64,000 nt of DNA, from IMG/VR virus record IMGVR_UViG_3300042542_005394, positions 1-64,000 of that record; one strand, written 5' to 3'. The translations under genes were made by a program, and so were the position numbers. Below the pieces are notes generated by a model. The model saw nothing but the letters and a program-made list of their open reading frames with translations, made no database searches and had not been told where the DNA came from. Of this stretch, positions 1 to 18,300 are shown in pieces; the stretch's first letter is position 1, and each line of letters begins with the position of its first letter. The stretch is from a virus.

Positions 1-349
1 GGCATTAACAAAGACGGGTCCGTTAAATTGTCTGACCCGAATAGCGATGGCACTTGGACAGCACAAGCCAACATGATAGAAAGATATGCTAGAGGTGGAG
101 CTGTTCAAAGCTTTATGGCCGGTGGAGCAGCTAAAAAAATAGCTTTCAAGGTTGGCGATAAAGTACGCTCTCTCGAAGAGTGGGGATTAGATCGCGAAGA
201 TGATCCCGCTTATACTGTGCTCGGCATTAACAAAGACGGGTCCGTTAAATTGTCTGACCCGAATAGCGATGGCACTTGGACAGCACAAGCCAACATGATA
301 GAAAGATATGCTAGAGGTGGAGCTGTTCAAAGCTTTATGGCCGGTGGAG
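1..349 (+). repeat. In-frame direct repeat, 222-nt (74-codon) period
   Basis: Bases 1-127 are identical to 223-349; the first unit is cut by the window edge. Confidence 0.95.
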
Positions 350-3300
350 TAGCAACCAAAACAAGAAAACCAAAAGAAGTTTTTGGAACTGGAGAAACCG
401 AGTTTCCATCAAGAATATCAAAAAAATATGCCGAAGAACAACATTCAGCTGGTGAAAGATTAAGAGCCAAATTAGCATGGGACAGAAATCCTAAAGACGA
501 AAGAATAATAATTGACGATGAAAAAGTAAAAGAGTCTTTCCAGCAGCCATTTGATAGAAACAGATTCATCGCATCATTCAAAGAAAAAATTAGTCGTGAC
601 TCACTATTTGAAAGAATGTCAGATTTTGCCAAGTTCGTAGGACTGCCCCAAGAAGATTTAACAACAGCCCTCCCACTACAACTTGATTTTGGAGCAAGCC
701 AAAGAGGTGGTGGATTAGGTATGTTTGCTGCTGCTCAATTTGAGAAAGGAGCAACTGGAATTAGGCCATATGAAGGTTATGATATATCTAAATCTGGATA
801 TGGAGAAAAACAAAAACAAGAAGCTTATGGACTAGAAAAGCTTATAGAAGCAAAACAAAAAGAAATTAAGAAGATTACAAAAACACCGACTGAAACTTTT
901 GACGATGGTAGTTTCTCTTTTGATAGAGACGCATTTCAGAAAGCTAATATTGAATTAGATAGTCTTAAAAATAGATTCTTTAGATTAAAAGACCTAAAAC
1001 GCGAAGCAGAGAAAGCAGCACTTGCTGAGCAAAATACTGTTTCGTCAGCTACTGGTCGAGGAACTATTAGTTTTGCTCCTTCTATGGGCTATTCTAGCGA
1101 TACCAAGAACAGCACCCTGTATCATGAAATGACACATCAACTATTTCAAGGACTAAGAACAAGATCAGAAGAAAGCTTTAATAAATATAGAACTAAAGTA
1201 GCATCTTTATTTTCTGGAGATAATGATGATCTAGCAGACGCTTTTGATTCTTTAACATCGGGTGGTGGATATTCTAGTGCTGATGTTGTTTATGGTAGGA
1301 GTTATAAATCAAACAACTTAAGTCAAATACTATTAAGTTATTATCGTCAAGTTGGTGATTCTTCTAGGGGCGCTACTCCAATTCCTGAAGATATAACAAA
1401 AAATCTTGCCAGCTTAAGCAATCAAAGCACAACAGCTAAAAGAGCCAGAGAGTATAGACCCATAAATCCTCAAGTGAATAAAGCTTTGCTTCAAGCAGGC
1501 GACAAGTTTGGAATGACTCAAGAGAAGATCAATAGAATGGAAGATAATGGTAAAGAAGAATTCTTAACAACTTTAATAGAAAAGGCTCCTCAGCTTGATC
1601 AACATTTACAAGGGATTTTGGATTCTACCTTAACGGAGCTATTAGGCAGCGCTGGAATTCAAAGACAAAAATATGCTGCGGGCGGTAATGTTAAATTTGC
1701 TGGTGGCGGATATTCTGCAAATACGGTACCAGCATTGGTTAGCAATGGAGAAGCTTTTGTACCACCAGAAACAGCAAGAAAGATTGGATATTCTACGCTT
1801 AACCGAATGAACCAAGCAGACCGCAACGGTATGGGGCGGTTTAGTGAGGGCGGTATTAGTTTATTTAAGGGGCCGGGTAGCGGCACTAGTGACAGTATTG
1901 GTCCAGTAGGATTACCAGTTGGGGGATTTGTTATAAGAGCAGCGGCCACCAAAGCTTTAGGATTTAATAGGGGCGGAGCTGTTCAGAGATTTGCTTTTGG
2001 AGGAGCTCCTAGAGCATTACCTAATGTTAATGTTAATTATAATCAAGCTTTGGCAGTCGTTGGAGTAATGGATTCTGTTACATCTGAATTAGAAAATCTT
2101 GCTGGAGTTTTACAAACATTAGGTGTTAGATCAAGTGATTCTGCTCGAATTATTCAGAGTGGCACGCAGGCAACATATCAACAAGCTATACGAGCAACAG
2201 AAGCTGATATTCGACGAGCAAGATTGGCTGGTGCTACAGCAGAGCAGATTGCTAATGCTGAAAATCAATTAGCTAATATTAGAAATCAAGCTAGACAAGA
2301 TATTGAAACTAGACGTACTTTGGGAGGATTATCTGGAAATCAATTACAGGCAATAGAGTCCAATGCTGAAACAATCAGGAACACAGCCACAGAAAGAATG
2401 AGAAATAGACTAGCTCGTAGAGGAATGAGTCAGGAAGACATTGATACTAGACTACAAGAAAATGCTGGAGCCATAAGCAGAGCGTCATACGAAAGAGCTT
2501 CCAGAGCATCTGGTGTCAATTTAAGAGCAGCTGGTCTAACAGGGGACGATGCTCAAAGATTTGTTCGTCAAAGCATGGGAGATCCTCGCGTATTAAGACA
2601 AATGGATCAACAACTAAGACAGCAATTAAGGAATAGCACTGAATATACAACAGCTAGTAGAGCTCAACAAAGGCAAATGAGACAGTCTGTTGAAGAAGAA
2701 ATTCGTACTCGAAGAGATATTGTTAATAATCTAGCTAGACAAAGAGGCCAGCAAGCTCCTGGTGGTGATCAGAGAGGTAATTTTGGAGGAATGTTGGGTT
2801 TGTCTTTTGGACTACAAGGTCTAGGGTCATTATTGGCTCAACAAATAAATGCTAGTTCTAGCGCCTCTAATGCTGCCACAGCCGGAGCCATTCAAGGCGG
2901 AGTAAGCGGACTAGCAACAGGAGCCATGCTTACTGGCGGTATTCGAGATATGTTAGGAAGTAGTCTTAGTCCAGCAATGTCTAAGCTTTTGGGAGGATTC
3001 GGTTTTGTTGCCACAGCAGCAGCTGCTGTTGGTCAAGCTTTTATAGATTCTCATAATGCTGTCATAACATTTGAGAAAACTTTACAGCAAAACAAAGTAG
3101 AAACAGCACTTAGCGATAGTCAAAAATTATTTGAAAAATTAAATAATGGTATAAAAAATATAGATGTTCAAAGAACTTTAACATCTAAATTAGCAGAAGC
3201 TGGGGACGCTGTTATAGCTGGCATAGAACTTAATAATAGTCGAGCTAAGGCTATGTGGGTTAATCTCCTTGATGTGGGAACATTAAAGGGTAATAATATT

Positions 3301-6300
3301 GCAACAACTTTAGGCAAAAATTTATATGGATTTGCTCCTGATAACGATTCGAATGCTATGGCTCAACGCAGTGAGATTCTGGAAAAGAAAGGAATCCTAA
3401 ATTATTTGAGGTCCACAGATTCTTTCGGAGAAGGAGATATAGGAAGAAGGAAAGAATATGAGTCTTTAATTCCAGAAAAAGCACGAGAAAATTCTAAGAG
3501 TTTTGCCGAAACCGCTAAACTTACTAACGATCTTATCGGAGCTAAGATTCAGAGCGGATCTAGTGTAGAAGATATATTTAAAGACCCAGCATGGGCTAAA
3601 CAAGCAGAAGTTATAGCTCGATCTAATACTGCTGTAGAACAGGAAATCTTAACTATTCGTAATAGAGCAGATATTAGTAATCTTGAAAAAGAAGCACGAA
3701 TTAAGAATATCATATCTATAAATGCAGAAGAAGCTGTCAGACAGCGAGCTTCTGTTGTTGAGAGACAAAAACAAATGAAATCACTAGACGATACCACCAA
3801 CGTCTATACCAGATCTCTTGAAAGAATGTTTCAAAATATGGAACAAAGCATTGGACGCGCAAGCTTTTCACTAGAACAAATGAGTAAAGACATCGATCTT
3901 GTATCAGATTCATTGCAAGGTCAGGCCAAGATAGGAGGAATAGCACTCACAGCGATCAATACCTTGCAAAACCCAAGAGCATACTCTGATCAAGCGGTAT
4001 CTGGAGCCAGAAATGTTGCCGCTGAATCTTTTGGTATCCGATCACCAGAAATGGTTTCTTTACTTGGTGTGGGCGAAAAAATAGAGTCCACCGTAATGAG
4101 CACTATTAACAAAACAGTTAATAAAAATCCTGGTATTACGAATGAAGCTTTAGGAATAGTAGTAGGTCGTGATGTCAAATCTGCGTTAGCAGATTTGTCT
4201 TTACCAGCAGATTTAGTTGATAAATTATCAGGTGAAGTAGGTAATATTCTTAAAGACTTTCAGACATCTGGAGAAGATAAATTAGATTATACCAAGTTAA
4301 GCGAAAAATTAGGCCAATTGAATAGAGTAGTGGATAGTTCTAAACGAGCACAAGAAGTAGCAATTAAAGCTTTAGAATTTTATCAAAATGCTCTCAATAC
4401 CTATGCTCAAAATATTAATAAGACTATTGACTTGCAAATTTCCGCTAATCAAAGACTAAGAAAAGCTACTGATATAGTTACTGATTCTGAGCTATCTTTG
4501 GCAAAAACTTTAGGTAAAAATATTAGTTTGGAAAATGCCAGAGCAACAGTTAATAGCAGAGTAGCAGCCAGAACAGGAGGAGTTACTAATCCTAATGACA
4601 TATTTGATAGTATTAATAAATTAGAAAATACAAGAACCGTTCAACAAGCTGAACAAAGAAGCGCCGCCGACAGAGGAGTATCTGGACAAGCAGACTTTAT
4701 TAAGTTTACTAAGAATTTAGCAGATACTAATGTTGGCTTAAGAGAAAATATTGATGCATTAAAATACTTGGCTGAAAATACGGATATTGCCGCTTCCGCT
4801 ATGGAAAAAATCCAAGAAGCCCAACAAAAGGCTTCGGGCAGAGCGTCATTTATTGAGAAATTAGTTACAAGCACTCCCGAAGAACTAGACTCATTATCAG
4901 GGGCTTTTCAAAGATTGCAGAATAATGCTAATGGACAAATAAATACCATTAATAGATCAGTTGGAGCTCAGCGAGCCTACTACGAGGCTTTGCAAAATGG
5001 CGCAAGCATGATGGAAGCTATGAAAGCTGCTCAAGGAGCTTTTGTTAATGAAAGAAAAGAAACACTAGGCGCTTTGAATGATATTATTCCATTCTTAGGC
5101 GACGGTCAACAAGCTGGTAATGTTAAAGCAAATGTTTTAGAAAGTATGCTTCAAGAATCTGGTATCGGAGTATCTCCATTATTTCAACAAATATTAAATA
5201 CTCTTAGAAATCCAGAAATGGATCCGGCAACTCAGGCCGCTATTGCTGAATATAGAGAGGGTAATAATTTACAGGCTAGAGCAAATGCTCTGTTAGCTCA
5301 ACTTGATTCTAATCTTGCTCGCGATATTGCAAGCCAATCGGCCAAAGCTTTAGCTAGCGCTATGAGTAATGTAAAACTAAATTTTGAGACTACAGAACTA
5401 TCAGACATCGCCAGTAATATACAACAAATTAATGCAAAAATACCGGCTGGTGTTGTTCCTGCTGTTCCTAAAGCCTCTGGCGGTATCATATATGCTGCTG
5501 CTGGACGAGCTATTGACTTTAAGAGTCAAGGTACGGATACTGTGCCAGCAATGTTAACTCCCGGAGAATTTGTTGTTAATAGAGCAGCAACTCAGAGAAA
5601 TTTACCATTATTACATTCTATTAATAGCAATAAGTATAGCGGTGGAGGACCGGTTAAATACTATAGTTCTGGTGGTTATGTAAGTCAAAATTTTAAGAGC
5701 GAATATAAGAAAAGTAGCGACGACCTTAATCTCTCCAGAGAGAAGTACATCGATCCTACCTCAACAGCTTTTAGCGATATAAAATCTGTATTTGCTGGAC
5801 CCGATAAGTTTGTTAGAGGAGTACAACCAACAAATATAAAGGCTCCTTTAGCTACAGGCTCCAGAGGGAAAGCTAGTTTAGCATCGATACAAAGCACAAA
5901 TAGTATGGAAGATTTATATTTAGGAGAAGCTCCAGCCATATTAGTAGAAAAAAATGCAGACAATCAAGATGTATTTGAGTATGGCGTAATGAATAGACCA
6001 CGAGCACACCTATTAAATCCTTTGGGTTATGTGATAGATAAACCTTTTGATACTAAAAATATTACAAAAAATAAATTTGCTGAATATAGAGATAATTTTC
6101 TTCAAAAGCTAAGAGATAATGATATAGATTTATCTACTATGATAGCTAGTAGACCAGCTGTCGATAATTTTGAAAATATTAGACAAAGTTTTATTTCAGA
6201 TGAATTTTATAATCCTAATGTTAGTTCGGACAATCCAGTAGGTATGATTGTCACTAGAAATAAAAATTTAGGAGCAATAGGTTGGAATAAACAAAGCACA

Positions 6301-9300
6301 GATCATCCTAAGACATTAAAACTCTTTAAATTTGGTTCTGCAGAAGAAGATGCTACAATGGTTTCAGATAAAGATTTTGGACTTTATAAGCTTCAACTAG
6401 ATCTAATGATGTCGGAAACTAGCGCAAAGGATCGTATTAAGTTATTGGCTGGTGATAATTCGTGGGTAGCGGATAAAGATAATATTGATAGAATTATTAA
6501 AACACAAGAATTAAATATTGAAGATATTAAAAAGTCTCAAACATTTGCTTTCACCGATCCCAGAAACGCTGCGTTTAACAATCTTTTTAAGGCAGAAGAT
6601 CCAAACCTTAGTAATCTAAGACAAAAATTAGAGATGTTACACAGTGGTGCTGAAGCTATTTTATTGACCGGGTCTGAATTAAACTTTTTTGATCCCAAAG
6701 CCCTTCATCCAGACCATTCAGAAGCAGTAACTCTTTTGCACGTTTTAAGCAATAAATATAGACCTATTCTACAGAAATCCTTAAATACTAAAGAACAAGC
6801 AGATAAAATACATACAGCTTTTCCAAAATTGATGGTTGGCGGAGCAGGATTACAAAATCTAGATCGTCCAATAGATTCTTGGGCTACAAATTACGAATTT
6901 GGAATATATGACGTAGCCGACATGAGTAAAATGAAAACTTTTCCATGGGTAGCTAACGCTGATCCATCTGTTATATCACAAGATATTCAGGCCGCTATAG
7001 ACAATCAAGCTGAACAATTAAAAACAAAATACGGAATCAGCACAAAACCAGTGTCTGATTTTGGTTCATATAAGCTGAAGCTTCCTGATCCTATAGGAGA
7101 TATTGATCTACCATATCATATGCAGTATACAGAATATACTGGGCCTCAGATTGCTACAGATCCTAGCAAAGCTGATTCTAATGGTTTTAATTTGGCTGCT
7201 AATTTAAATAAAGTTTTATTAATGACTCCAAATAATAAAAATCCATTCAGTCCATACTCTCAGTTTAAAAAATATGACTATTCAACAGCTTATGTGAATA
7301 AAAAATTAACTGGTGATGAAATATTTGACAAAGCACATGTGCAACTTGACCAAATTCCCGACTTCGCAACCCTTGTTAAAGGTAATATTGACAGAAATCA
7401 AAGAGATCAACTCAAAGAAAATCTTAAAAGTGTTCAATATAGTATTGACTTAGATTCCTTAACTGATCATGCTAATCATCCAATACTTAAAAATATTCCA
7501 TTGTTTACAGATAGTCCGACAGAGAAAAAAACGCATGTATTTTCTATCGGTGAGTATCTGAGTACAGTAGCAGATAAAGTGTTTGCAGACAAAGATGCCG
7601 CAGCAAAGAAAGCTGTTGGAGAAATTGATGATAAGGGTCAATTAGCTGGTGACGTTATCAAGGATAATGATCTACCAAGAGCTGTTAAAGATTTAGCTAA
7701 ATTATCATTGGGTGTTTTTGGAAGAAGAAGAGTTCCTGGATTACCTGGAAATTGGCTATACAACAGTATCCGTGGAGTGTTACAAAGACCGTTTAGAGAT
7801 TCCGGAGTGGCTAAACAAGCAGCAGGATATACAAGTAATGTATTTGGTAATTTTGGAGGTTATCTGAGCAAATTAGCTCCCATGACAAGAAATGCTAATG
7901 TTTACCAGCAGCTAAAAGAATTATTTACGTTAGGATCTGGCGCCGCTATGGCATTTGCAGGATTAGCCAGTGGTGATACGCGAATGATAGGTCAGTTTAC
8001 TAAGCTTAATCTAAACGCAGAAGATTTATTTAGAACTCTTGGAGGAGCATCATTATTTGGTAGAATTTCTTCAACCCAATTATCTGGCGACTATCAAGCT
8101 ATATTAGGTCAGCAATTAGAAGGAGCCAAGATTAAAACGGTTGGGGCTAATGGTACACTAAGTCCGGTCTCTCCGGATAAAGCTATGCCACAAAAATATA
8201 ATGATTTGGTTAATGTTGCATTTAATCCATATAATGAATTTCCAAGTAAAGATACTCGTAAGGGTATTATTGAAAAACTTACTATGGATATGATTAATGC
8301 GCGAGATCAAATGGGTCTTCCATATTTTGATTCCAATACACAAAGATTCTTATACGGAAATATGTCTTCTTTGTATAATTGGTATGGTGGAAATGGAGTA
8401 TGGGAAGGTCAAGATTATTTCTTTGATAAGAATGCTGATCCTGATAATGCTAAGCGTACTCAACAAGTTATAGATTCTTTAAGAGGACAAGCTGGTCAAG
8501 ATGCATACTCTAAGGGTAATATTGCTCATAATACATTAGGTTTTGCTTCTCGTTATGGAAGTTTACCAACGGATAAATGGTTTGTTCAACGAAGAGAGGC
8601 TGGTTTAAATGCAGAAGCCGAAGCTGTTAACAACCCGAACGCAACCCAAGACGCTCTGAGATTTGCTACTGGAGGCGTGGTATATGCTCAAGATGGTAAG
8701 CATATTAATTTCCAACCTCGTGGAACTGATACTGTTCCAGCAATGTTGACTCCTGGCGAATTTGTAATTAATAGACAAGCCACCCAGAGGAACTTGCCTC
8801 TCCTCAAGTCTATTAATAACGGAGGAGTTCAAGGATTCAGTAGTGGGGGAGTGGCTTATCTTAGTAGGGGAGGACAACCAAACGATGTTTCATCGGGCAG
8901 GTTTGAATTATCTGATGACCAAGCACCATTTTCTCATAGGTCAATCAATCCATTAACGGGAAATAGAACTCCCGAGAAAGGTGATGATCTTGAGAAAAAA
9001 TATAGGATTAACTCTGGTATATATGATTATTTAACCCTGAGAACCACAATGCCAGATTGGTTGGTCTCATTAAATAATTTAAGTTTCGATGATAATAGCA
9101 TGCGCTTTTTTAGCGATGCTTCTTTTTACAAAACTTTAACTAGAATACGAGAAGCTACTGATTTAAGAAGTCTTCAAAATTTATCATATGATTTTGTTAA
9201 AGGCTTTAAATATAGAGACTATAATCAAGATAGTCGTCTTAGCGGCTTTGATTTCACAACCCATCTATCTAAAACAGATGGAATTTTAGGATTAATAGAT

Positions 9301-12300
9301 CCTGATGTGGGGGGAGACCTTCAGCCGAAAGATTTGGTCAAATGGAGAACAACGAAAGCTAAGCTCCAAGCAAAAGGAAGTGCTGCAAGAGTTATTCGAA
9401 ATTTAACTCCTGACCTAGAAAATATAAGAGATATTCTTTCTGATCAAAAGCCCGCGGGAGAGAATAATAATCCAGAGTTTAAAAATAGAAATGATTATGA
9501 GTCACCCGCAGCTTTAATAAGATCTACTGTTAGTCAATGGAAAAAAGACAGACAACAACAACAGCTTAGAGTAAAAGTTCGACAAGAAGAGAGAGCAGCA
9601 GAAGACGGCGGTCAAATTACTATGCCTCCTCATCTTAGTCTAGATTTTGACAAAATTAATGAAGAAGATGTTGTGAAAGATATTCTTACTAAGAATAAAA
9701 CTCCAAATACTAAAAATTTAGTAGATTGGCTCGAAAATAATGTGAAAACAGTATCTGAAAAAGTAGCTGACTTGGTACCTGTTCCAAAGGCTAGTGAGGA
9801 GTGGGATGCTGCTGATGCAGAACGGCCTCGTGTTATTTTAGACCTTATTAAGAATGGCCCAGAAGCTTTCATGATCGGAATGAGAGGAGAAACCAAAGAG
9901 GGCAAGGGTAAGAGACTTATCTATGGGTTACTAAACCAGTCTGCTAGAGTTCAAGGAATTAATAATCTTATTAAAGCTAGATCATTATTTTCTGGATCTG
10001 ATACTCCACTCAGAAAAGATGGAGATATGGCTAGAATAGATAGTAGTTTAGTATATAGCGATCAGACCAGAACTCCTGAAAATTTTGTAGGAAGAGAAGA
10101 TAAAGTAGCAAGGCCGGGGCAATTTAAACCTGGAATTATGTTAGATAGATTAAGAAATCCAGTAGATGATGCTGCAATACCTGGATCCGGACCAAACAGA
10201 GAGGAAACTCCTGCTGAACGCACAGAAAGAGAAAATAGAGCCAGGATGGCAGATAGGAATGGAAGATCGGCTATTCGTGGCCTTGAACTATGGGATACTA
10301 ATAGAGATGGTCAAATTTCTTTTGAAGAATGGAGTGAGTTTACTCCTGAACAACCTAAACTAGAAAGATTTTTTGGCGCTTCTACTGTTGATGCATTAAT
10401 GGGAGCTTATTCTTTAGCATTAAAAGGCTTGGGTCTTAGAGATAAAAACGCCACAGACAATTTCAAACCCAGAACTCTAAAAGACTTTTTTAATAATATT
10501 GATAAAGATAACTCTGGATTTATCGATCCACATGAATTCTCAGATATGGTTGGTCAACCACTTAAATATCTTGATTTAGAAACAGATAGAGAAGCAAAAG
10601 AATTAGGAGATACATTAGGAACACAAAGAGATCCTCGTGGTGCTAATAAATTAGCTTATGCTAGAATAGACAAAGCCCAGATTGCATCAGTAAAAGCATT
10701 ATTAAAACAAGATTTTAAAGAACTATACCCAGTTTCTTTCTCTAAGGCTTCGCAATACTCAGAAAGAGAAGTAATACAACCACAGATAGATGAACTTAGA
10801 AAAATTACAGGGGTTTCTGAGCGAGACAAGATAAATAAAAGAACAGTGTTGGCAAATATAGCATCGTCCTTAAATAAGAATAATAGTGATTGGGGTCTTG
10901 CTCCTAATGTTAAGGAAAATCTTGGTAATATTATCGTTAAAATTAATCAAGATTCTCTGCTATTTCCAGGAGTGGTTAATAAAGCATACACCCAAGGTCT
11001 TGCTATACCTCAAGATCTTCTACACAATACTGATATTAACTATGAGAAGACTCTTAATGCATCAGGGGTTGATAGAGACATATTTGAAACCATATGGCAA
11101 GACTATAAACTATTTTCTAAGTTTGATAACCCAAACAGCAAGGCTTCGTTTGAGAAAACATATAAATTAGAGAATGAACTTAATTCTCAAGAAATGGGAG
11201 AAGCCGAAGAAAGAAGTAAAGCAGCAGCGGAACTAAATCAAAAAGCAAAAAATAAAAGAGCAGCTAAAAATGATCTAACAAAAAAGATTTTAAGAGAAGA
11301 ACTATTTGTTAAAGATAGTTATTTCAAAGAATTTCCCAAACAATGGGGTGGCAGATACAAGGATTACTACGATTTACCTGATCCAACTCTTGCTCGACAT
11401 GTTGAGATGTATAACTCATCAATACCTTCCGGAGAATCCGGTCGTCTATCAATGCCAACTGCAGATCAAGAGCAGGATCATAAAGACAGATTAAAAGATA
11501 TTAGCAAAAATCCAAATCCAATTTATGCTAGTAATGGAATGCTTATTCCTTATCAGCCAAGAGGTACCGATACCGTTCCTGCAATGCTCACGCCGGGAGA
11601 GTTTGTAGTCAATAGAGCCGCAACACAAAGAAATTTACCATTATTAAAATCTATCAATAGTAATACATATCTAGCTAAAGGAGGTTCGGTCGGCCAAACT
11701 GTAATAAATATTCCAGCAAATACCATAAAAAATAATCTAGATACCATAAACACAAATGCAATTAAAAACTATAATATATCAAAACACATTAAAGAACAAA
11801 ATAGTTTAATGATAAGAGGAGCCGAGCAGACACACAGAGAAACACTCAATATAGGTAATGATGTTGGAGAAATGAGAGATCAGTCAACCTCAACTTATAT
11901 TGAGACACAGCAAATGATTGGGAAGGCAAGAGAGATAATGGAAAGATATCAGCAGCTTCCGAACAATTTGAGTACCGGTGGAATAGTTTATGCTGCTGAT
12001 GGTACATTAATAAACTATCAACCTCGCGGTACCGATACTGTTCCTGCAATGTTAACTCCCGGTGAATTTGTTGTTAACGCCCAAGCAACCAGAGCTAATC
12101 TGCCATTATTACAAAGTATTAATCAAAGCAAGGGTGGTAGCATTAAAGGATTTGCTAATGGTGGGGTAATTTATGCTACTGACGGCGGCACAATCCCAAC
12201 TAAGCCAGACGGTTCTGCTGATACTAATTTTGATGCTCGTAAAGCTAAACGAACAGCATATTTACAAAGGCAGATAGAAAAAGAAGAAAAATCAGAATTT

Positions 12301-15276
12301 ATTGATAAACTAGGCATTCTTTATAATGATACTACAAATAAAGAGAAGATAGCAGACGCCCTAAAGAGACAAAAGGACTATAGAAGAAAAATTGATTATT
12401 ATATTCGACAATTTACTACAGACAAAGCTTTAGATATTAAACTTAAAAGATTTCCAAGAATAAGCGAAGCAGCAGAAATGCTTGTAGAGCAATCACAACA
12501 GCCAACTGTAGACCCATTTGCCCAGCCTGATTATGGCCCTGGCCCAGCGATAATGGTTAATGGTAAGAGAGTGCAATCGAAAGCCAATGGTGGAGTGGTT
12601 TATGCTCAAGAAGGATTTGACCCATCAAGACCATTAAATCCGATGATAAATCGTCACGGAAAGGGTCCAACTTCAACCCTGCCCCAACAGCCTATTACTA
12701 ATTTTGATAGTGAAAAGTTGGCCGAAGAAGGAAAAGCTTTTATGTACGGAGCTGCTAAGTCCGTACTTCCGGGGTTAGCTGGTTTGGGTGCTGGAGTTTT
12801 AGGATTACCCACTACTGGTCCTGGTGGATTTGCTATTGGCTTAGGAGCAGGGGCCGCAGTATATCAAGCTCAAGAAAATTATTTGAATGCTTTAGCTCCA
12901 CAAACTAATAAAGACATTAATAAAACCATGGAAGATAATTGGCAAGCTTCATTATTAGGATCCCTGCTTGGTGGTATAGGTGCTGATAAAATAGGTCGTA
13001 ATTTACTGTCTTCTTCTATGAAGAATACTTCAGGAATTAGAATGCTTCCATCTGGTAACGGTTCTTCAAGACCAGATATGAAAAGTGCTGGTCAAGAAGC
13101 TTTAGAAGAATTTTCTTTAAGAAGCAGACCAGCAGCTAGCGCCCCATTAGATATGCCCAAAACAGCAAAAACAGTATCTCTTTTTCATGCTAGTAATACC
13201 GGATTAGAAAACTCTATTTTACAAAGTTTTCAAAAACAAGGAGGAAAAAGTGGTATTGCAGGAGGATATGGACAAGGTAAAGGATTATATGCTTATACTA
13301 GCAGAGAAGCAGCTGAAAAACATGCAAGAAATATTCTTAAAGGAGGTACGCTTACAGGAGCGGATATTCGTGGTAAGCCAATGATTGTTAAATTCGATGA
13401 AGCCTTAGATCCTTCTAAGTTTGATTTAGATTATGAATTTAATGCTGGATATGTTACAAGATGGATACATGATAACTTTGACGATATACAAAAGATATTA
13501 GCTGATCAAAAAATACCAATGCTTAAGGGTAAAGGATTAGATCCTGTTACTGGCTCTAAAGGAATACACACACAGGTTTCTACGGTACAACCTGGAACTC
13601 TCGATGCTTTACTACAATCTCGTACTGGAGGAGTAGGTCCTAAAAAATGGATATACGACACACAAGATTCTACAAGAGATGGCGAAATTTTGTCTAGAAT
13701 TATAAAAGCATTAGAAAAAAGAAATCCAGAGATGGTCAAAAAATTTAGACAAGGATTTTTTGAAACTATGCCAGCTGGATCAGCTATTAAATATACTGGT
13801 TCAGATAATTTAATGCCTAGCAATATCGATGTATTAGCTAAGGCTAGAGGCGGCATGATTTATGCTTCTCGTGGAACCTTGGTAAACTATCAACCTCGTG
13901 GTACTGATACTGTTCCGGCAATGTTAACTCCCGGAGAGTTTGTTGTTAATGCTAAAGCTACTTCTAGAAATTTATCATTACTACAATCTATAAATAATGG
14001 AGTTAAAGGATATTCTAATGGAGGAGTGGTTGATCCTATCTATAGAGATCCAGGCGGAGTAGTCCCTTCTCTAGGCGATCTAATAAATACTAAATATAAA
14101 GACGCAAAAGACGAAGACCTAGAACCAAAAAAGGATGACTCTAAAGAAATCAAAAGAGAAAAATACAGAGTTCGTATGGATAGGAAAAAAAAGAATAGTC
14201 CATATCAACAGATGCTTGATCAGAGGAGGGAGGCTTATGAAAATCCCAATTCACGAGAAGAGAGAGTTAGAGAAAGAAACGAACAAAATAATCCGCTTTT
14301 AAAAATACAAAGACTAGTAACAGAACAATATCAACAAGATCCAATAAAATTTCAAAAAGAAGGATATAAATCAAAATCTCCACAGGAATTAGCAGCAGAA
14401 TATGAACAATTATGGAGCTCTGAGCCTCCAGAAAAATTATACGACATAGCAAAAGCCAAATATTTTGAGGACCAAAAACGATATAAGGGCTTAAAAACTG
14501 TTTATAGTAATTCGTTGAATGCTCTAGCATTAATTAGACAACGTCCAGCTTTTGGAAATACCATAATCGAAAATTCCGGAAAGAGACTAGTAGAACTATT
14601 GAATACTGTTGTTCAAGGATCATATGCGGAGGGATTAGCTTTGGATCAGGGTTGGAAAATTTTAGGACAAAAATATCCAGAATTTTTAGCAGAAAATTCA
14701 CCAACTAATCAGCGCAGAGCAGCCGGACTCTATGCTGGAGGATTAATATATGCCAATACGGGAATGTTAATTCCTTATCAGCCTCGTGGAACTGACACTG
14801 TTCCGGCGATGTTAACTCCAGGAGAATTTGTAGTCAATAAACAAGCTACTCAAAATAATCTAGATTTATTAAAACAAATCAATAGTAATAGATATAATCA
14901 GGGCGGAGCTGTAGCCTATAAACAGTCTGGCGGTCCGATAGCAGCAGCTACTAAACCGATTTATAGACAGTATGGAGGAATGACGGATGAAACTTCTACG
15001 GGTGGTGGCGGTGGTGTATCTAATAATGGTAATGTTGGTCTAAATTTGGATGGTTTGAGTAACTTTACAGCTACATTTGACAAGTTTATTCAGCAATTAA
15101 ATGGCCTAAAACTACCAGAAGTAATCAATATTCAAGGAAATCATAAGGTTGATGTGGTAATTAATGGAGCAGCGGCATTTCAGGGTATGCAGGAGGGTGT
15201 GAGGAATATGGTACTTATGGAAGTAAATAAGGCCATGGCAAGCATAAGTAAACAAACAGACGGAGCTATATCATAA
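1..15276 (+). CDS. Giant tape-measure-like polyprotein with cargo domains (5'-truncated, >5090 aa)
   Basis: Frame is open from base 1 (GINKDGSVKL...), so the TTG at 28 is not the real start. Ala/Gln-rich helical core (~2000-5450) with a hydrophobic Gly/Ala segment (~2780-3050). Contains the GPGSGTSDSI and GTDTVPAMLTPGEFV motifs typical of tape-measure C-terminal regions. Lies directly upstream of tail/fibre genes. Confidence 0.8.
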   Translation, partial: GINKDGSVKLSDPNSDGTWTAQANMIERYARGGAVQSFMAGGAAKKIAFKVGDKVRSLEEWGLDREDDPAYTVLGINKDGSVKLSDPNSDGTWTAQANMIERYARGGAVQSFMAGGVATKTRKPKEVFGTGETEFPSRISKKYAEEQHSAGERLRAKLAWDRNPKDERIIIDDEKVKESFQQPFDRNRFIASFKEKISRDSLFERMSDFAKFVGLPQEDLTTALPLQLDFGASQRGGGLGMFAAAQFEKGATGIRPYEGYDISKSGYGEKQKQEAYGLEKLIEAKQKEIKKITKTPTETFDDGSFSFDRDAFQKANIELDSLKNRFFRLKDLKREAEKAALAEQNTVSSATGRGTISFAPSMGYSSDTKNSTLYHEMTHQLFQGLRTRSEESFNKYRTKVASLFSGDNDDLADAFDSLTSGGGYSSADVVYGRSYKSNNLSQILLSYYRQVGDSSRGATPIPEDITKNLASLSNQSTTAKRAREYRPINPQVNKALLQAGDKFGMTQEKINRMEDNGKEEFLTTLIEKAPQLDQHLQGILDSTLTELLGSAGIQRQKYAAGGNVKFAGGGYSANTVPALVSNGEAFVPPETARKIGYSTLNRMNQADRNGMGRFSEGGISLFKGPGSGTSDSIGPVGLPVGGFVIRAAATKALGFNRGGAVQRFAFGGAPRALPNVNVNYNQALAVVGVMDSVTSELENLAGVLQTLGVRSSDSARIIQSGTQATYQQAIRATEADIRRARLAGATAEQIANAENQLANIRNQARQDIETRRTLGGLSGNQLQAIESNAETIRNTATERMRNRLARRGMSQEDIDTRLQENAGAISRASYERASRASGVNLRAAGLTGDDAQRFVRQSMGDPRVLRQMDQQLRQQLRNSTEYTTASRAQQRQMRQSVEEEIRTRRDIVNNLARQRGQQAPGGDQRGNFGGMLGLSFGLQGLGSLLAQQINASSSASNAATAGAIQGGVSGLATGAMLTGGIRDMLGSSLSPAMSKLLGGFGFVATAAAAVGQAFIDSHNAVITFEKTLQQNKVETALSDSQKLFEKLNNGIKNIDVQRTLTSKLAEAGDAVIAGIELNNSRAKAMWVNLLDVGTLKGNNIATTLGKNLYGFAPDNDSNAMAQRSEILEKKGILNYLRSTDSFGEGDIGRRKEYESLIPEKARENSKSFAETAKLTNDLIGAKIQSGSSVEDIFKDPAWAKQAEVIARSNTAVEQEILTIRNRADISNLEKEARIKNIISINAEEAVRQRASVVERQKQMKSLDDTTNVYTRSLERMFQNMEQSIGRASFSLEQMSKDIDLVSDSLQGQAKIGGIALTAINTLQNPRAYSDQAVSGARNVAAESFGIRSPEMVSLLGVGEKIESTVMSTINKTVNKNPGITNEALGIVVGRDVKSALADLSLPADLVDKLSGEVGNILKDFQTSGEDKLDYTKLSEKLGQLNRVVDSSKRAQEVAIKALEFYQNALNTYAQNINKTIDLQISANQRLRKATDIVTDSELSLAKTLGKNISLENARATVNSRVAARTGGVTNPNDIFDSINKLENTRTVQQAEQRSAADRGVSGQADFIKFTKNLADTNVGLRENIDALKYLAENTDIAASAMEKIQEAQQKASGRASFIEKLVTSTPEELDSLSGAFQRLQNNANGQINTINRSVGAQRAYYEALQNGASMMEAMKAAQGAFVNERKETLGALNDIIPFLGDGQQAGNVKANVLESMLQESGIGVSPLFQQILNTLRNPEMDPATQAAIAEYREGNNLQARANALLAQLDSNLARDIASQSAKALASAMSNVKLNFETTELSDIASNIQQINAKIPAGVVPAVPKASGGIIYAAAGRAIDFKSQGTDTVPAMLTPGEFVVNRAATQRNLPLLHSINSNKYSGGGPVKYYSSGGYVSQNFKSEYKKSSDDLNLSREKYIDPTSTAFSDIKSVFAGPDKFVRGVQPTNIKAPLATGSRGKASLASIQSTNSMEDLYLGEAPAILVEKNADNQDVFEYGVMNRPRAHLLNPLGYVIDKPFDTKNITKNKFAEYRDNFLQKLRDNDIDLSTMIASRPAVDNFENIRQSFISDEFYNPNVSSDNPVGMIVTRNKNLGAIGWNKQSTDHPKTLKLFKFGSAEEDATMVSDKDFGLYKLQLDLMMSETSAKDRIKLLAGDNSWVADKDNIDRIIKTQELNIEDIKKSQTFAFTDPRNAAFNNLFKAEDPNLSNLRQKLEMLHSGAEAILLTGSELNFFDPKALHPDHSEAVTLLHVLSNKYRPILQKSLNTKEQADKIHTAFPKLMVGGAGLQNLDRPIDSWATNYEFGIYDVADMSKMKTFPWVANADPSVISQDIQAAIDNQAEQLKTKYGISTKPVSDFGSYKLKLPDPIGDIDLPYHMQYTEYTGPQIATDPSKADSNGFNLAANLNKVLLMTPNNKNPFSPYSQFKKYDYSTAYVNKKLTGDEIFDKAHVQLDQIPDFATLVKGNIDRNQRDQLKENLKSVQYSIDLDSLTDHANHPILKNIPLFTDSPTEKKTHVFSIGEYLSTVADKVFADKDAAAKKAVGEIDDKGQLAGDVIKDNDLPRAVKDLAKLSLGVFGRRRVPGLPGNWLYNSIRGVLQRPFRDSGVAKQAAGYTSNVFGNFGGYLSKLAPMTRNANVYQQLKELFTLGSGAAMAFAGLASGDTRMIGQFTKLNLNAEDLFRTLGGASLFGRISSTQLSGDYQAILGQQLEGAKIKTVGANGTLSPVSPDKAMPQKYNDLVNVAFNPYNEFPSKDTRKGIIEKLTMDMINARDQMGLPYFDSNTQRFLYGNMSSLYNWYGGNGVWEGQDYFFDKNADPDNAKRTQQVIDSLRGQAGQDAYSKGNIAHNTLGFASRYGSLPTDKWFVQRREAGLNAEAEAVNNPNATQDALRFATGGVVYAQDGKHINFQPRGTDTVPAMLTPGEFVINRQATQRNLPLLKSINNGGVQGFSSGGVAYLSRGGQPNDVSSGRFELSDDQAPFSHRSINPLTGNRTPEKGDDLEKKYRINSGIYDYLTLRTTMPDWLVSLNNLSFDDNSMRFFSDASFYKTLTRIREATDLRSLQNLSYDFVKGFKYRDYNQDSRLSGFDFTTHLSKTDGILGLIDPDVGGDLQPKDLVKWRTTKAKLQAKGSAARVIRNLTPDLENIRDILSDQKPAGENNNPEFKNRNDYESPAALIRSTVSQWKKDRQQQQLRVKVRQEERAAEDGGQITMPPHLSLDFDKINEEDVVKDILTKNKTPNTKNLVDWLENNVKTVSEKVADLVPVPKASEEWDAADAERPRVILDLIKNGPEAFMIGMRGETKEGKGKRLIYGLLNQSARVQGINNLIKARSLFSGSDTPLRKDGDMARIDSSLVYSDQTRTPENFVGREDKVARPGQFKPGIMLDRLRNPVDDAAIPGSGPNREETPAERTERENRARMADRNGRSAIRGLELWDTNRDGQISFEEWSEFTPEQPKLERFFGASTVDALMGAYSLALKGLGLRDKNATDNFKPRTLKDFFNNIDKDNSGFIDPHEFSDMVGQPLKYLDLETDREAKELGDTLGTQRDPRGANKLAYARIDKAQIASVKALLKQDFKELYPVSFSKASQYSEREVIQPQIDELRKITGVSERDKINKRTVLANIASSLNKNNSDWGLAPNVKENLGNIIVKINQDSLLFPGVVNKAYTQGLAIPQDLLHNTDINYEKTLNASGVDRDIFETIWQDYKLFSKFDNPNSKASFEKTYKLENELNSQEMGEAEERSKAAAELNQKAKNKRAAKNDLTKKILREELFVKDSYFKEFPKQWGGRYKDYYDLPDPTLARHVEMYNSSIPSGESGRLSMPTADQEQDHKDRLKDISKNPNPIYASNGMLIPYQPRGTDTVPAMLTPGEFVVNRAATQRNLPLLKSINSNTYLAKGGSVGQTVINIPANTIKNNLDTINTNAIKNYNISKHIKEQNSLMIRGAEQTHRETLNIGNDVGEMRDQSTSTYIETQQMIGKAREIMERYQQLPNNLSTGGIVYAADGTLINYQPRGTDTVPAMLTPGEFVVNAQATRANLPLLQSINQSKGGSIKGFANGGVIYATDGGTIPTKPDGSADTNFDARKAKRTAYLQRQIEKEEKSEFIDKLGILYNDTTNKEKIADALKRQKDYRRKIDYYIRQFTTDKALDIKLKRFPRISEAAEMLVEQSQQPTVDPFAQPDYGPGPAIMVNGKRVQSKANGGVVYAQEGFDPSRPLNPMINRHGKGPTSTLPQQPITNFDSEKLAEEGKAFMYGAAKSVLPGLAGLGAGVLGLPTTGPGGFAIGLGAGAAVYQAQENYLNALAPQTNKDINKTMEDNWQASLLGSLLGGIGADKIGRNLLSSSMKNTSGIRMLPSGNGSSRPDMKSAGQEALEEFSLRSRPAASAPLDMPKTAKTVSLFHASNTGLENSILQSFQKQGGKSGIAGGYGQGKGLYAYTSREAAEKHARNILKGGTLTGADIRGKPMIVKFDEALDPSKFDLDYEFNAGYVTRWIHDNFDDIQKILADQKIPMLKGKGLDPVTGSKGIHTQVSTVQPGTLDALLQSRTGGVGPKKWIYDTQDSTRDGEILSRIIKALEKRNPEMVKKFRQGFFETMPAGSAIKYTGSDNLMPSNIDVLAKARGGMIYASRGTLVNYQPRGTDTVPAMLTPGEFVVNAKATSRNLSLLQSINNGVKGYSNGGVVDPIYRDPGGVVPSLGDLINTKYKDAKDEDLEPKKDDSKEIKREKYRVRMDRKKKNSPYQQMLDQRREAYENPNSREERVRERNEQNNPLLKIQRLVTEQYQQDPIKFQKEGYKSKSPQELAAEYEQLWSSEPPEKLYDIAKAKYFEDQKRYKGLKTVYSNSLNALALIRQRPAFGNTIIENSGKRLVELLNTVVQGSYAEGLALDQGWKILGQKYPEFLAENSPTNQRRAAGLYAGGLIYANTGMLIPYQPRGTDTVPAMLTPGEFVVNKQATQNNLDLLKQINSNRYNQGGAVAYKQSGGPIAAATKPIYRQYGGMTDETSTGGGGGVSNNGNVGLNLDGLSNFTATFDKFIQQLNGLKLPEVINIQGNHKVDVVINGAAAFQGMQEGVRNMVLMEVNKAMASISKQTDGAIS
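5530..14838 (+). repeat. Six dispersed copies of the coding repeat GTDTVPAMLTPGEFV(V/I)N
   Basis: Copies at 5530-5580, 8722-8772, 11563-11613, 12028-12078, 13900-13950 and 14788-14838. Each is followed by an xxATxxNLxLLxxIN-like segment. Degenerate copies lie at ~1717-1761 and ~1870-1935. Confidence 0.95.
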
Positions 15277-15306: not shown

Positions 15307-18300
15307 ATGTCACAAAATATTCCCGGTAATTTAAACATTGGTAGTGGAGTTAATCCTGATATAGTATTATCTCAACAGTCTGGAATTAGTACTGTTTTTA
15401 ATGCTAATAAGCAAAATATAGATTTTACGATATATTCTACAGGTAATTCTAATCTTACTTATGATGCTTCCACCGGTCGTTTAGGTGTTGGCACAGGCTT
15501 GCCTGATGCTGTTCTTCATGTAGTAGCCCCTTGTGCTAAAGACGGATTAATTGTAGAGAGCGTTACTAATTGTCCGACAGGTGTTACCTTACTCTTAGTG
15601 CACAATCCTCAAACATCTCCAGTAAGCGGAAGTTATCCGGCTATAGTTAATCTTGCTGGTCGTGATACTAATTATAATGAAATTTATTATGGTCAAATAC
15701 TATCTAAAATTTTAGACCCTAATACTGGATCTACTAGTGGTGAAATTATTTTTACTGTGGATCAAACTGGTGTTAATAAACCGGTCTTTGTTGCAAATTT
15801 GTCTAATGTAGTTTTGGGTGGTAATAATAACGCTTCTGGTTTTGCCTATGACGTTGTTGGTAATTACAATCGACTAAACGGAGTTTTATATAATAATATT
15901 GGTTCCTACAATACTGGCACCGTTAATAGTGGTATAGTTATAGGTAATAGTAATTTATTGAACGGTAATCAATTATTCTTGTTTGCTAATAACTCAGTTT
16001 TATCCGGAGTATCCGGAATCAGTATTGGTAATAGTATTCTAGCTAGTGGTTCTAATAATATCGTTCTAGGTAATACCGTTAACCTTACTGGACTGAACAA
16101 TATATTGTTAGGCAGTAATAATGACGCTAAAATATTTTCTACAGTAGGTCTTGCTCAATCACTATTCTCGTCAGGAGTTTCTGGTATAGTATTAGGTTCT
16201 AATGTGTCTAATACTGGAAATTTTAATATTTATATTGGTAATGATACTTCAGTATCTGGAAATAATAATAATCTTATAGGCTCTTTGGTATATTTAACTG
16301 GAAATAATAATCTTTCATATGGTAATCAAAATGTAGTTAATGGCAATAACCTTATTTGCATAGGGTCATATCAAACCGCGTCCAATATCAATAGTGGTAT
16401 TTTTATTGGAAATAGCATAGGTTCTAACGAAGCGGTTCGCTCTATCATTATTGGTATTGGTAATAAAACACCCAACGATCAGCAAGGTCTTTCCGATAGT
16501 ATATTGGTGGGTATTAATAATACATTAGCTAGTGGAATTCCTGACAAGCTATTATTAATTGGACAAAATAATGTTGTTAAAGATATTAATAATTCTCTTC
16601 TAGTTGGTAATCAAAATAATGCTAGTGGAAGCATAAATAATAATCTTCTTTTGGGCAACACCAACGCCGCCCCTATAGACAGCAATAATAATATCATAGT
16701 AGGATTATTGAATAATCAAACCGGCATCTATATCGACACAGCAGGAGGTATTACTGGAGTAGCCAGAAGAATCAACTCCACAGCAGCTAATAGTATTGTT
16801 GCCGGTATACATAATATACAAACTAGCGGCGTATCTACAAATATTATAGGTAATAAAAATGCTGTTTCTGGATCTAACGACAACGTCATAGGATCATTCA
16901 ACAGCCTGCGTAATGCTTCAAGATCATATAGTGTTGGGAATTCCAACTATATGGTTGGAGATAATCTTGGAGCTATGGGTAGTAAAACATTAATTGTTGG
17001 CCAAGAATCTTTAATATTTAATAACGCAGATAAGCGCATGGATGTTTTTGGTAGTGGTAATATAGCTTTAGGTTTTAATCAATTGGTTCCAAGCGGATTA
17101 GTAGTTGGAACAAACAATAGAATATATGGTCCTAATAATACTATTTATGGAAGAAATAATACTCTAGGCTCTATAGCTCATGCTTTCGTGATGAACTCAC
17201 TGTCCTCGAACAGTATAACGATACCTTCTCTTAATGTAGCTAATAAATATACAATAGCAGATACCGCATTATTAGTTGTACAAAGTCCTGCCGCTAATAA
17301 TAATACATTTATAAGAGAAATATTAGATATAGTAGAAAACCCACTAGAAAATACTACTACTATTCAATTTAGTACCAGTATTGTTGTTAATTCCTCAAAC
17401 GGATATTTTTCTATTAATGAAAATTTTGACGACAATAATCTTCCTAATAATACAACAGTTAGTGGATTAATAATGCCATATGCTGTTGGTGGCGGCGTGG
17501 GCGGACCAGAAACTAATCCTACATATGGATCTAATAATATAGTTATTGGTTCTAATAATAACTACATATATAGCAGTGGTACGGTGATTGGTTTTAATAA
17601 TACAGTATCTGGGGTTAGAAATGTTGTTGTTGGATATGGCTTAAGTGGAGTGGTTGATAATACTCTTTATGTTGGAACAAATAATAGTAATAAAATTATT
17701 TTAGATAATCAAAGAACAGTTTTTAATTCTGGTAAGATACAAGATAATTTTATAGTTAAATCAACAAACGATAATACTTCGGTGCTAAATATCGATCTTA
17801 ATAATAACAGGGTCGGGGTTAATACTAATAATCCAACAGCAGATCTATCTGTAAGCGGGTTAACTAGTACTAATACTATTAGAGTAGGCTTTTCATCTCC
17901 CGATCAGTATGTATTGACCTCCAATGTCAACGGATTTGGTACATGGCAATTGCCAGTTAGATTATCCGGTTTAGACACCGGTCTTATGTGCAAAATTAAC
18001 GATAAGGTAAGTAGTGGTATCTCTAATATCTATTTTGATCCTGCTGGTAATTCATTAAGTTTTAATTTAGATAATAATAATGGATTAGTTCTTAATCCGA
18101 CGGGCATATTTGTAAATGATGCTGGTAACACTTTTGCTATGAGAATACGAGGTAGCGGAGGTTCTGATTTTGCTCGTGTATTATTTAATACTAATTTTGG
18201 TAATAATAGAATAGACTTCTTTAATATTAGTGGTAATTCTGGAGTTTTGAATAACTTAACCATAATTAGTGGATTAAATGTACCAACTAGTTTAACTGGT

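Follow-up and report, generated by a model that had tools for sequence, protein, structure and literature searches.

A giant tape measure gene at the end of a virus contig

The stretch of DNA considered here, referred to as the window, comprises 64,000 nucleotides (nt) and corresponds to bases 1-64000 of a 113,002-bp linear IMG/VR virus contig whose completeness is rated at 82%. Its left end is taken up by one very long open reading frame (ORF) on the plus strand (1..15276, 5,091 codons and a stop), which, judged by its homologues, is the 3' part of a giant tape measure gene of the TP901/SPbeta type from an uncultured long-tailed phage. Tape measure proteins (TMPs) are textbook rulers, and the single embedded enzymes of TM4, T5 and SPbeta are among the exceptions. 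The protein encoded in the window is almost certainly a modular TMP, in which a conserved scaffold and a series of mutually unrelated cassettes are connected by copies of a short peptide module, termed the joint below, and in which cassettes are exchanged at these joints.

No stop codon interrupts the frame upstream as far as base 1, so the gene is truncated by the contig end, and its missing 5' part is not found at the opposite end of the contig. Relatives that align to the first 560 residues put the missing part at about 650-2,300 codons, so that the full-length protein probably measures about 5,700-7,400 aa; the absent part is estimated to hold the PF10145 domain and the first joint. The contig begins in a near-perfect tandem repeat of 222 nt (1..352, plus strand; nt 1-130 and 223-352 are identical at 129 of 130 positions), each unit of which closes with paired [FY]xxGG motifs. 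This repeat may be either a true duplication or an assembly-end effect; the assembly probably broke there, and the copy number of the unit is uncertain. The first-pass annotation of the window had read nt 1-350 as SH3-like repeats, a label rejected here with SH3_15 reaching E 0.027, below the cut-off.

The identification as a tape measure, proposed in the same annotation, is borne out by the homologues. A whole-length protein search returns 116 of them, 2,900-7,872 aa long, nearly all with PF10145 and many labelled as TP901-family TMPs by their sources. The homologue P0004 (locus L004) matches TMP PHROGs 28, 4211 and 167 over its first 700 aa and carries PF10145 (PhageMin_Tail) at aa 265-469 (80.3 bits against a cut-off of 33.2). 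The corresponding region lies beyond the window, as the gene is truncated upstream of the region that aligns after that domain. The joint in the window matches the C-terminal parts of TMP PHROGs 25241, 17300, 934, 36688 and 8010. Among cultured phages, the closest relative of the N-terminal tape measure domain is SPbeta YomI, at 26% identity, and tblastn with the helical core finds nothing in the INPHARED phage collection. At L004, the TMP homologue is preceded by a weak tail-terminator match and four unannotated ORFs and followed by a conserved 1,462-aa gene; no tail tube, sheath or chaperone family is recognised around it. Directly upstream of it (8680-9914 of L004) lie ORFs of 108 and 296 aa, in the place expected for frameshifted tail assembly chaperones, and neither matches a chaperone family.

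Scaffold and cassettes along the protein

All the pieces described below are read from the plus strand. Closest to the truncated end is a cassette with an HExxH motif (aa 100-550, nt 298..1650), in which YHEMTHQLF lies at nt 1120-1146, HExxH at nt 1123-1137 and EDxGKEEFLTTL at nt 1540-1575. It is followed by scaffold segment 1 (aa 607-1824, nt 1819..5472), a long-helix core conserved in at least 113 relatives. This segment is Gly-rich from nt 2776 (aa 926) and contains, at aa 996-1015, the sole strongly hydrophobic 19-aa stretch. An AlphaFold2 (AF2) model of low overall confidence places long helices at aa 680-1200, with predicted local distance difference test (pLDDT) values of 60-88 over aa 680-910, in agreement with the helical core proposed earlier. 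Scaffold segment 4 (aa 1878-2888, nt 5632..8664) is conserved in about 40 relatives.

Beyond segment 4, cargo-like pieces follow one another. An EF-hand cassette (aa 2942-3835, nt 8824..11505) has its two loops at nt 10294-10329 and 10501-10536, and is succeeded by a 102-aa cassette (nt 11665..11970) held in common with the relative P0003 only. A composite cassette (aa 4044-4614, nt 12130..13842) then combines two orphan half-joints, a hydrophobic Gly-rich stretch (nt 12766-12990) and a module resembling ADP-ribosyltransferases (ART-like; aa 4331-4614). The half-joints, GGVIYATDG (nt 12160) and GGVVYAQEG (nt 12589), keep the GGxhYAxxG pattern of a joint without its GTDTVPAMLTPGEFV core, and the piece of about 140 aa that they bracket may have been left with joint remnants by earlier fusions or deletions. 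A charged 243-aa segment (aa 4668-4910, nt 14002..14730) lies between joints 5 and 6, and the protein ends in a C-terminal tail (aa 4964-5091 and the stop, nt 14890..15276) common to at least 89 relatives, which, judged by position, corresponds to the tip-bound C-terminus of other TMPs. A by-eye likeness of this tail to the end of lambda gpHC was dropped, as a hidden Markov model (HMM) of the tail is not significant against lambda gpH or Fionnbharth gp22. BLASTP among the inter-joint segments finds them mutually unrelated, as the first-pass annotation had stated, except for two trivial short matches.

The joint is an old module maintained as a peptide

Exact copies of the 15-residue core GTDTVPAMLTPGEFV stand at nt 5530, 8722, 11563, 12028, 13900 and 14788, all six where they had first been noticed. 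They lie in joint 1 (5473..5631), joint 2 (8665..8823), joint 3 (11506..11664), joint 4 (11971..12129), joint 5 (13843..14001) and joint 6 (14731..14889), respectively. The whole joint is about 52 aa long and runs from GGxhYAxxG through GTDTVPAMLTPGEFVVN and ATxxNLPLLxxIN to [FY]xxGG. The consensus of 991 distinct copies reads GG.vYAs.G.linfqPrGTDTVPAMLTPGEFVVNrkATqknLpLL.aINng, then one or two [FY]xxGG. With an HMM derived from these copies, the six reach E 5e-27 to 6e-29, and no further copies appear outside the tape measure gene in the whole 113-kb genome. The closing motif, relaxed to [FYM]xxGG, is present at 17 places, 16 of them at module borders; shuffled sequences have 3.0 +/- 1.7.

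Two degenerate copies had also been proposed. The one near nt 1717 (1651..1818) is recovered by the joint HMM (nt 1672-1815, E 6e-6). The one near nt 1870, GSGTSDSIGPVGLPVGGFVIRAAATKALGF (1870..1995), has no joint HMM match at E<0.01 and can be made out as a pattern in a MAFFT alignment; in the consensus of relatives this copy is better preserved. A sequence search of the PDB with the joint profile returns nothing relevant (best E 0.19, a cadherin), and AF2 predicts the joints to be flexible, with pLDDT below 45.

The six copies differ mostly at synonymous positions, as had been claimed: the 15 amino acids of the core are invariant, yet 14 of its 45 nucleotide columns vary, and over 46 codons of the joint the mean proportion of synonymous differences (pS) is 0.65 against 0.20 for nonsynonymous ones (pN). 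Pairwise nucleotide identity is 66-77%, and the longest exact runs are 6-20 nt. Purifying selection on the joint peptide is thus strong, even though drift has brought the underlying DNA close to saturation. Because the amino acids are fixed while the DNA has diverged, the copies must be old and maintained at the peptide level, with no homogenisation by gene conversion, and because exact runs are short and the DNA divergent, they are not an assembly artefact.

Among relatives, the joint is both widespread and repeated. In a database of 1.84 billion representative proteins, 9,680 clusters match it at E<=1e-3, 586 of them reaching E<=1e-30, and the top 150 have 2-12 copies each. The 116 giant homologues contain 603 copies. 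By HMM, the 239 relatives collected in all have a median of five and a maximum of 10, with the first joint near residue 519 and the last some 164 residues short of the C-terminus. In cultured phages, whose hosts include Mycobacterium (cluster K), Gordonia, Nodularia, Ralstonia and Burkholderia, all 116 records agree with the first-pass expectation of usually one motif per TMP: each has a single copy, always within the TMP gene. These profile matches identify the joint as the same module that ordinary TMPs carry once.

Cassettes are exchanged at joints

The linker profile search proposed beforehand as a check came out in favour: in about 240 giant relatives, linker and core are conserved and the cargo varies. 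When the 116 homologues are split at their joints and the pieces clustered, a constant order emerges: N-terminal TMP domain, slot A, helical core, a segment of about 1,000 aa, slot B, and a short C-terminal tail. Both slots are variable and hold unrelated cassettes, slot B 0-5 of them, many being singletons, and total length differs among close relatives (6,170 versus 7,794 aa). A search for related loci that used the cassette region as a single query confirmed none.

Identity to P0003 along the chain is 86% in the helical core, 37% in the first part of segment 4 and 93% in the rest, nil in the EF-hand cassette (no match), and 100, 100, 96 and 100% in the last four pieces. P0004 shows another pattern, with 81% in the helical core, 69% and 82% in the two parts of segment 4, 78% in the EF-hand cassette and, over the last four pieces, no match, no match, 37% and 78%. 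In P0009, the helical core is 39% identical and the composite cassette 68-86%; in P0012 and P0020, cores of 36-43% identity accompany an HExxH cassette of 86%. Of the ends of homology blocks, 38% come to lie no more than 25 aa from a joint, versus 10% at random, although, the proteins being related, these ends are not independent.

Two junctions show the exchange directly, so that the earlier suggestion of the linker as a recombination point holds for joints 2 and 3. In P0004, the EF-hand cassette stands in tandem with cassette 32, an unrelated piece of 926 aa; the window has the EF-hand cassette without cassette 32, and P0003 has cassette 32 without the EF-hand cassette. Compared with P0004, joint 2 of the window is chimeric: up to ...GTDTVPAMLTPGEFVIN it matches the P0004 joint that follows segment 4, and from ...NLPLLKSINNGGVQG onward the P0004 joint that follows cassette 32 and precedes the EF-hand cassette. 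At joint 3, the left flank is of the P0004 type, while the sequence from the core on, including everything downstream, is identical to P0003. The crossovers at these two joints therefore lie inside or at the invariant core, and relatives have gained, lost and replaced cassettes there. As DNA identity between joints is low, the joints would be permissive junctions at which recombinants survive rather than DNA hot spots. Identity to P0003 also breaks inside segment 4, at aa 2110-2135 (nt 6328-6405; 37% before and 93% after), where there is no joint.

The halves of a joint covary weakly with the neighbouring cassette across 484 junctions, a trend that is confounded: where the downstream cassette alone is the same, right-half identity is 0.52 and left-half identity 0.40, and where the upstream cassette alone is the same, the values are 0.54 and 0.54. 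The gene immediately downstream (15307..19692, plus strand, 1,461 aa, no family match) aligns collinearly, at a uniform 79% identity, with its counterpart behind the P0004 TMP, from which it follows that the mosaic structure is a property of the TMP gene.

Every cassette avoids cysteine

The 5,091 aa of the tape measure encoded in the window contain no cysteine, against 1.73% in the other ORFs of the genome; at that rate, the probability of finding none is about 3e-39. The 239 relatives hold 55 cysteines in 1,055,342 residues, and 206 of them have none. Cysteine is likewise absent from lambda gpH, T5 pb2, TM4 gp17 and P23-45 gp96 (5,002 aa, its RNA polymerase included), and Fionnbharth gp22 has a single one, within a DCSG motif. 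Every cassette thus shares the cysteine avoidance of known tail-lumen proteins. Because all of them do so, the cassettes appear to be handled like the rest of the TMP, and not to be shed to work only in the producing cell.

What the cassettes are

The EF-hand cassette is, by profile match, the sole cassette with a family-level assignment. Pfam EF-hand_5 scores 43.4 bits (cut-off 25.9) and EF-hand_1 40.6 bits (cut-off 25.4), and the two canonical 12-residue loops, DTNRDGQISFEE and DKDNSGFIDPHE, are present, in support of the EF-hand segment recognised in the first-pass annotation. A Pfam scan of the cassettes, even at E<=10, yields nothing else and no polyvalent-associated domain; polyvalent-type domains (ART-PolyVal, LPD22 and LPD23 among them) turn up as sub-threshold ESM-Atlas leads, at 0.75-0.87. 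Fold searches with both AF2 models (VIA-align wide, best Z 5.0; Foldseek against the PDB, none at E<=0.001) were negative, and the models are too poor for this to be informative about folds.

For the HExxH cassette, a peptidase had been suggested. The motif is real, YHExTHQLF and EDxGKEEF being conserved in 50 homologues; no Pfam peptidase family or fold is matched, with model pLDDT of 36-58 around the motif. The cassette occurs in 42 of 193 N-complete relatives (22%) and is missing from the closest scaffolds. On these grounds, a role as the general processing protease of the family was rejected, and the module is better regarded as cargo. In about 20 relatives it is 74-86% identical, while their helical cores are about 29-48% identical where measured. 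It is the best-conserved piece across distant relatives, which suggests recent lateral spread or very strong constraint.

The ART-like module fared similarly. Conserved histidine, tyrosine and glutamate positions are indeed present (H4396, Y4423/Y4430 and E4479, in at least 95% of 27 sequences), within the motifs GYGQGxGxYxY at 4422-4432 and DLDYE at 4475-4479 for the last two, and ESM-Atlas gives ART-PolyVal, Diphtheria_C and TNT as leads at 0.75-0.83, all sub-threshold. Neither a Pfam match nor a structural match is obtained (best Z 5.0, none on the module), so that the label is a lead only. The module occupies slot A in some relatives and slot B in others.

Genes beyond the tape measure

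The downstream gene described above is the first of six consecutive plus-strand ORFs (15307-35943; 1,461, 475, 515, 1,680, 2,385 and 373 aa) with no Pfam or PHROG match, presumably a tail tip or fibre module. Unlike the TMP, these ORFs contain cysteines, 56 of them in the 2,385-aa product. The 1,680-aa and 2,385-aa ORFs overlap by 74 nt (27635-27708) in different frames. This may reflect a programmed frameshift, a start called wrongly or nothing more than an ordinary overlap.

Relation to known systems

The nearest precedents are TMPs with a single embedded enzyme. In mycobacteriophage TM4, the mt3 domain of the TMP is an active peptidoglycan hydrolase that aids infection and DNA entry; without it, tails measure 180 instead of 200 nm and the phage plates less well on stationary cells (Piuri and Hatfull 2006, PMC1796659). 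In TM4 gp17, the joint HMM has its match (aa 704-749, E 7.5e-12) immediately ahead of mt3, the domain around W853; in Fionnbharth gp22 of cluster K, the match is at aa 875-924 (E 3e-11), followed by a QPYKWGG...DCSG domain. The TMPs of TM4 and cluster K thus resemble the protein in the window in having a joint directly upstream of a non-ruler enzyme domain, and TM4 gp17 also in being free of cysteine. They differ in scale, with one joint and one cargo in 1,200-1,400 aa, whereas the family described here has at least seven joints and about nine segments in more than 5,000 aa, and exchanges its cassettes among relatives.

Lambda and T5 provide precedents for processing. Lambda gpH is cut in a Gly-rich region at about aa 690-730 into gpH* and gpHC, by a protease and at an exact site that are still undefined; gpHC is retained in the virion, where residues 818-849 alone are resolved (PMC12617516). 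The joint HMM finds a match at aa 753-773 of gpH (E 1e-4 for that single protein), and aa 735-790, adjoining the Gly-rich cleavage region, follow the pattern [FY]xxGG...GEFV...[FY]xxGG. T5 pb2 is cut after R1127; the enzyme part on the C-terminal side remains in the tip of the tail and is the first to be expelled (PMC10038345). In its sequence, R1127 immediately precedes AEGGMMY, a likeness to GGhhY seen by eye only. Both proteins differ from the present case in having a single site each, and a link between joint and cleavage is inferred.

Thermus phage P23-45 gp96 is a 5,002-aa TMP fused to a working virion RNA polymerase, which was called 'previously unsuspected' in 2024 (PMC10770324). Like the protein in the window, it is giant and cysteine-free, and it brings a working enzyme into the host. 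It has one cargo, a two-barrel RNA polymerase domain at the N-terminus (the end that the truncated gene in the window lacks), no joint and no HExxH motif, and it shows no sequence similarity to the 239 giant relatives. Polyvalent proteins are virion-associated polypeptides that each unite a large number of unrelated domains, often enzymes, and that are presumed to be delivered together with the DNA; zincin-type peptidase and ART domains are typical of them (Iyer et al. 2017, PMC5512222). They share the multi-module layout; they differ in that the description (PMC5512222) is without the word 'tape' and without a repeated delimiting joint, and no Pfam polyvalent domain is matched in the window. 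Among other modular carriers, SPbeta YomI (CwlP), which has the closest cultured N-terminal TMP domain noted above, carries lytic enzyme domains, and Sle1-type effectors of contractile injection systems (CIS) are TMP-like carriers with exchangeable functional domains (PMC13277306). For neither of these has a repeated joint or a multi-cassette array been reported.

The organisation also recalls bacterial toxins. Polymorphic toxins such as CdiA, with its VENN motif, and Rhs, with PxxxxDPxGL, consist of a constant delivery scaffold, a short demarcation motif and recombining variable modules, and the Rhs motif doubles as a self-cleavage site. The likeness lies in the constant scaffold, the conserved short motif and the exchange of modules at that motif. 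However, these toxins are secreted bacterial proteins with one variable C-terminal module and an immunity gene, whereas the present family consists of phage structural proteins with several internal modules and no immunity partner. Single embedded TMP enzymes, one fused RNA polymerase, the polyvalent concept and TMP-like modular CIS effectors are already published; the literature, which was covered in part, yielded no description of a repeated joint or of multi-cassette TMPs.

Ruler, carrier or both?

How might such a protein work? The reading we favour, with moderate confidence, is that of a giant modular TMP that is at once a ruler and a carrier of cassettes. The whole chain would be built into the tail lumen, its cassettes extended or partly folded, and would set a very long tail, of about 0.9-1.1 μm at 0.15 nm per residue. 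On infection it would leave the tail ahead of the DNA, C-terminus first, and bring its cassettes, the EF-hand, zincin-motif and ART-like modules among them, into the host envelope or cytoplasm. The cassettes are probably present in the virion lumen; that they also act in the host is a possibility to which we give somewhat less than even weight. The joint would most likely be a permissive connector of the unstructured-to-hairpin kind, required in assembly or ejection. Some or all joints might in addition be sites of processing, a role that the first-pass annotation had named beside loading and docking and for which lambda gpH (gpH* and gpHC) and T5 pb2 are precedents; these make processing plausible without amounting to proof, and we consider cleavage at the joints rather unlikely. 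The functions of ruler and carrier are not alternatives, because the embedded enzyme of TM4 counts towards tail length. For the same reason, tail length scaling with the whole protein would be compatible with cargo, as deletion of mt3 shortens the tail and the enzyme still aids infection.

Could the chain be a ruler and nothing else, measuring out a tail of about 1 μm, with cassettes as filler and joints as periodic contacts to a tail chaperone or the tube wall? P23-45 and P74-26 have 5,000-aa TMPs and tails of nearly 1 μm (PMC10770324, PMC10034513), the embedded domains of TM4 add to tail length, most cassettes have no recognisable fold or family, and total length is free to vary among close relatives to the extent given above. 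Filler, however, would not be expected to preserve canonical EF-hand loops, an HExxH module far better conserved than the scaffolds that carry it, or an ART-like module with invariant H, Y and E in 27 sequences and in different slots, and the P23-45 TMP has no joints, so these are not needed for length. A chain that merely measures is thus improbable in our estimation. A different division of labour, in which the joints are cleaved in the producing cell so that cassettes are released and scaffold pieces alone enter the tail, would accord with the cleavage of the lambda and T5 TMPs during tail assembly and with the predicted flexibility of the joints. Yet proteins confined to the cytoplasm have no need to avoid cysteine, as every cassette does, the cleaved C-terminal pieces of lambda and T5 remain in the virion, and no protease is common to the family, which together make such an expression polyprotein very unlikely. 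The chance that repeats produced chimeric or collapsed metagenome assemblies, making the giant ORF and the cassette differences unreal, is close to negligible. The contig does begin inside the gene at the 222-nt repeat, and repeats can break assemblies, but the exact runs shared by joint copies are too short to mislead assemblers, the frame is open over 15 kb, the same protein cluster is found on three contigs, and about 240 independent giant homologues from several sources have the same scaffold order.

Several observations weigh against the combination of ruler and carrier that we favour. Recombination is not confined to joints, as the break within segment 4 lies away from any of them. The cassettes other than the EF-hand match no family or fold, so that 'effector' is a label by analogy, and both AF2 models are poor, with mean pLDDT of 41 and 48. 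With regard to processing, the joint consensus has no conserved residue just upstream of the joint that could be a candidate P1 site, the match to lambda gpH is weak (8.1 bits), and T5 pb2 has no joint HMM match. The presence of the chain in the tail, the tail length, cleavage and delivery are all things that we infer for this phage and its relatives. Three copies of a chain of about 6,500 aa would need at least several hundred nanometres of a 4-nm lumen, so that a tail of about 1 μm must be assumed.

A bolder possibility is that the joint is a portable signal, such that any cysteine-free module placed between two joints would be threaded into the lumen, expelled ahead of the DNA and set free by a cut at the joint, in the way that lambda gpH gives gpH* and gpHC. 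We regard this as unlikely, a conjecture by analogy with processed TMPs. If true, these proteins would be natural, recombination-programmable protein-delivery cartridges with up to a dozen payloads, and the joint would account for the long-unknown cleavage determinant of lambda gpH.

Implications

The family generalises the single-cargo TMPs, with a conserved scaffold, a defined joint and a shuffled pool of cysteine-free cassettes. Whether or not delivery takes place, the joint is a candidate for the determinant of lambda gpH processing, which is so far undefined. Delivery of the cassettes would make long tails vehicles for pre-made host-takeover or anti-defence proteins, in a manner comparable to polymorphic toxin systems, and the joint would offer a handle for loading foreign proteins into phage tails.

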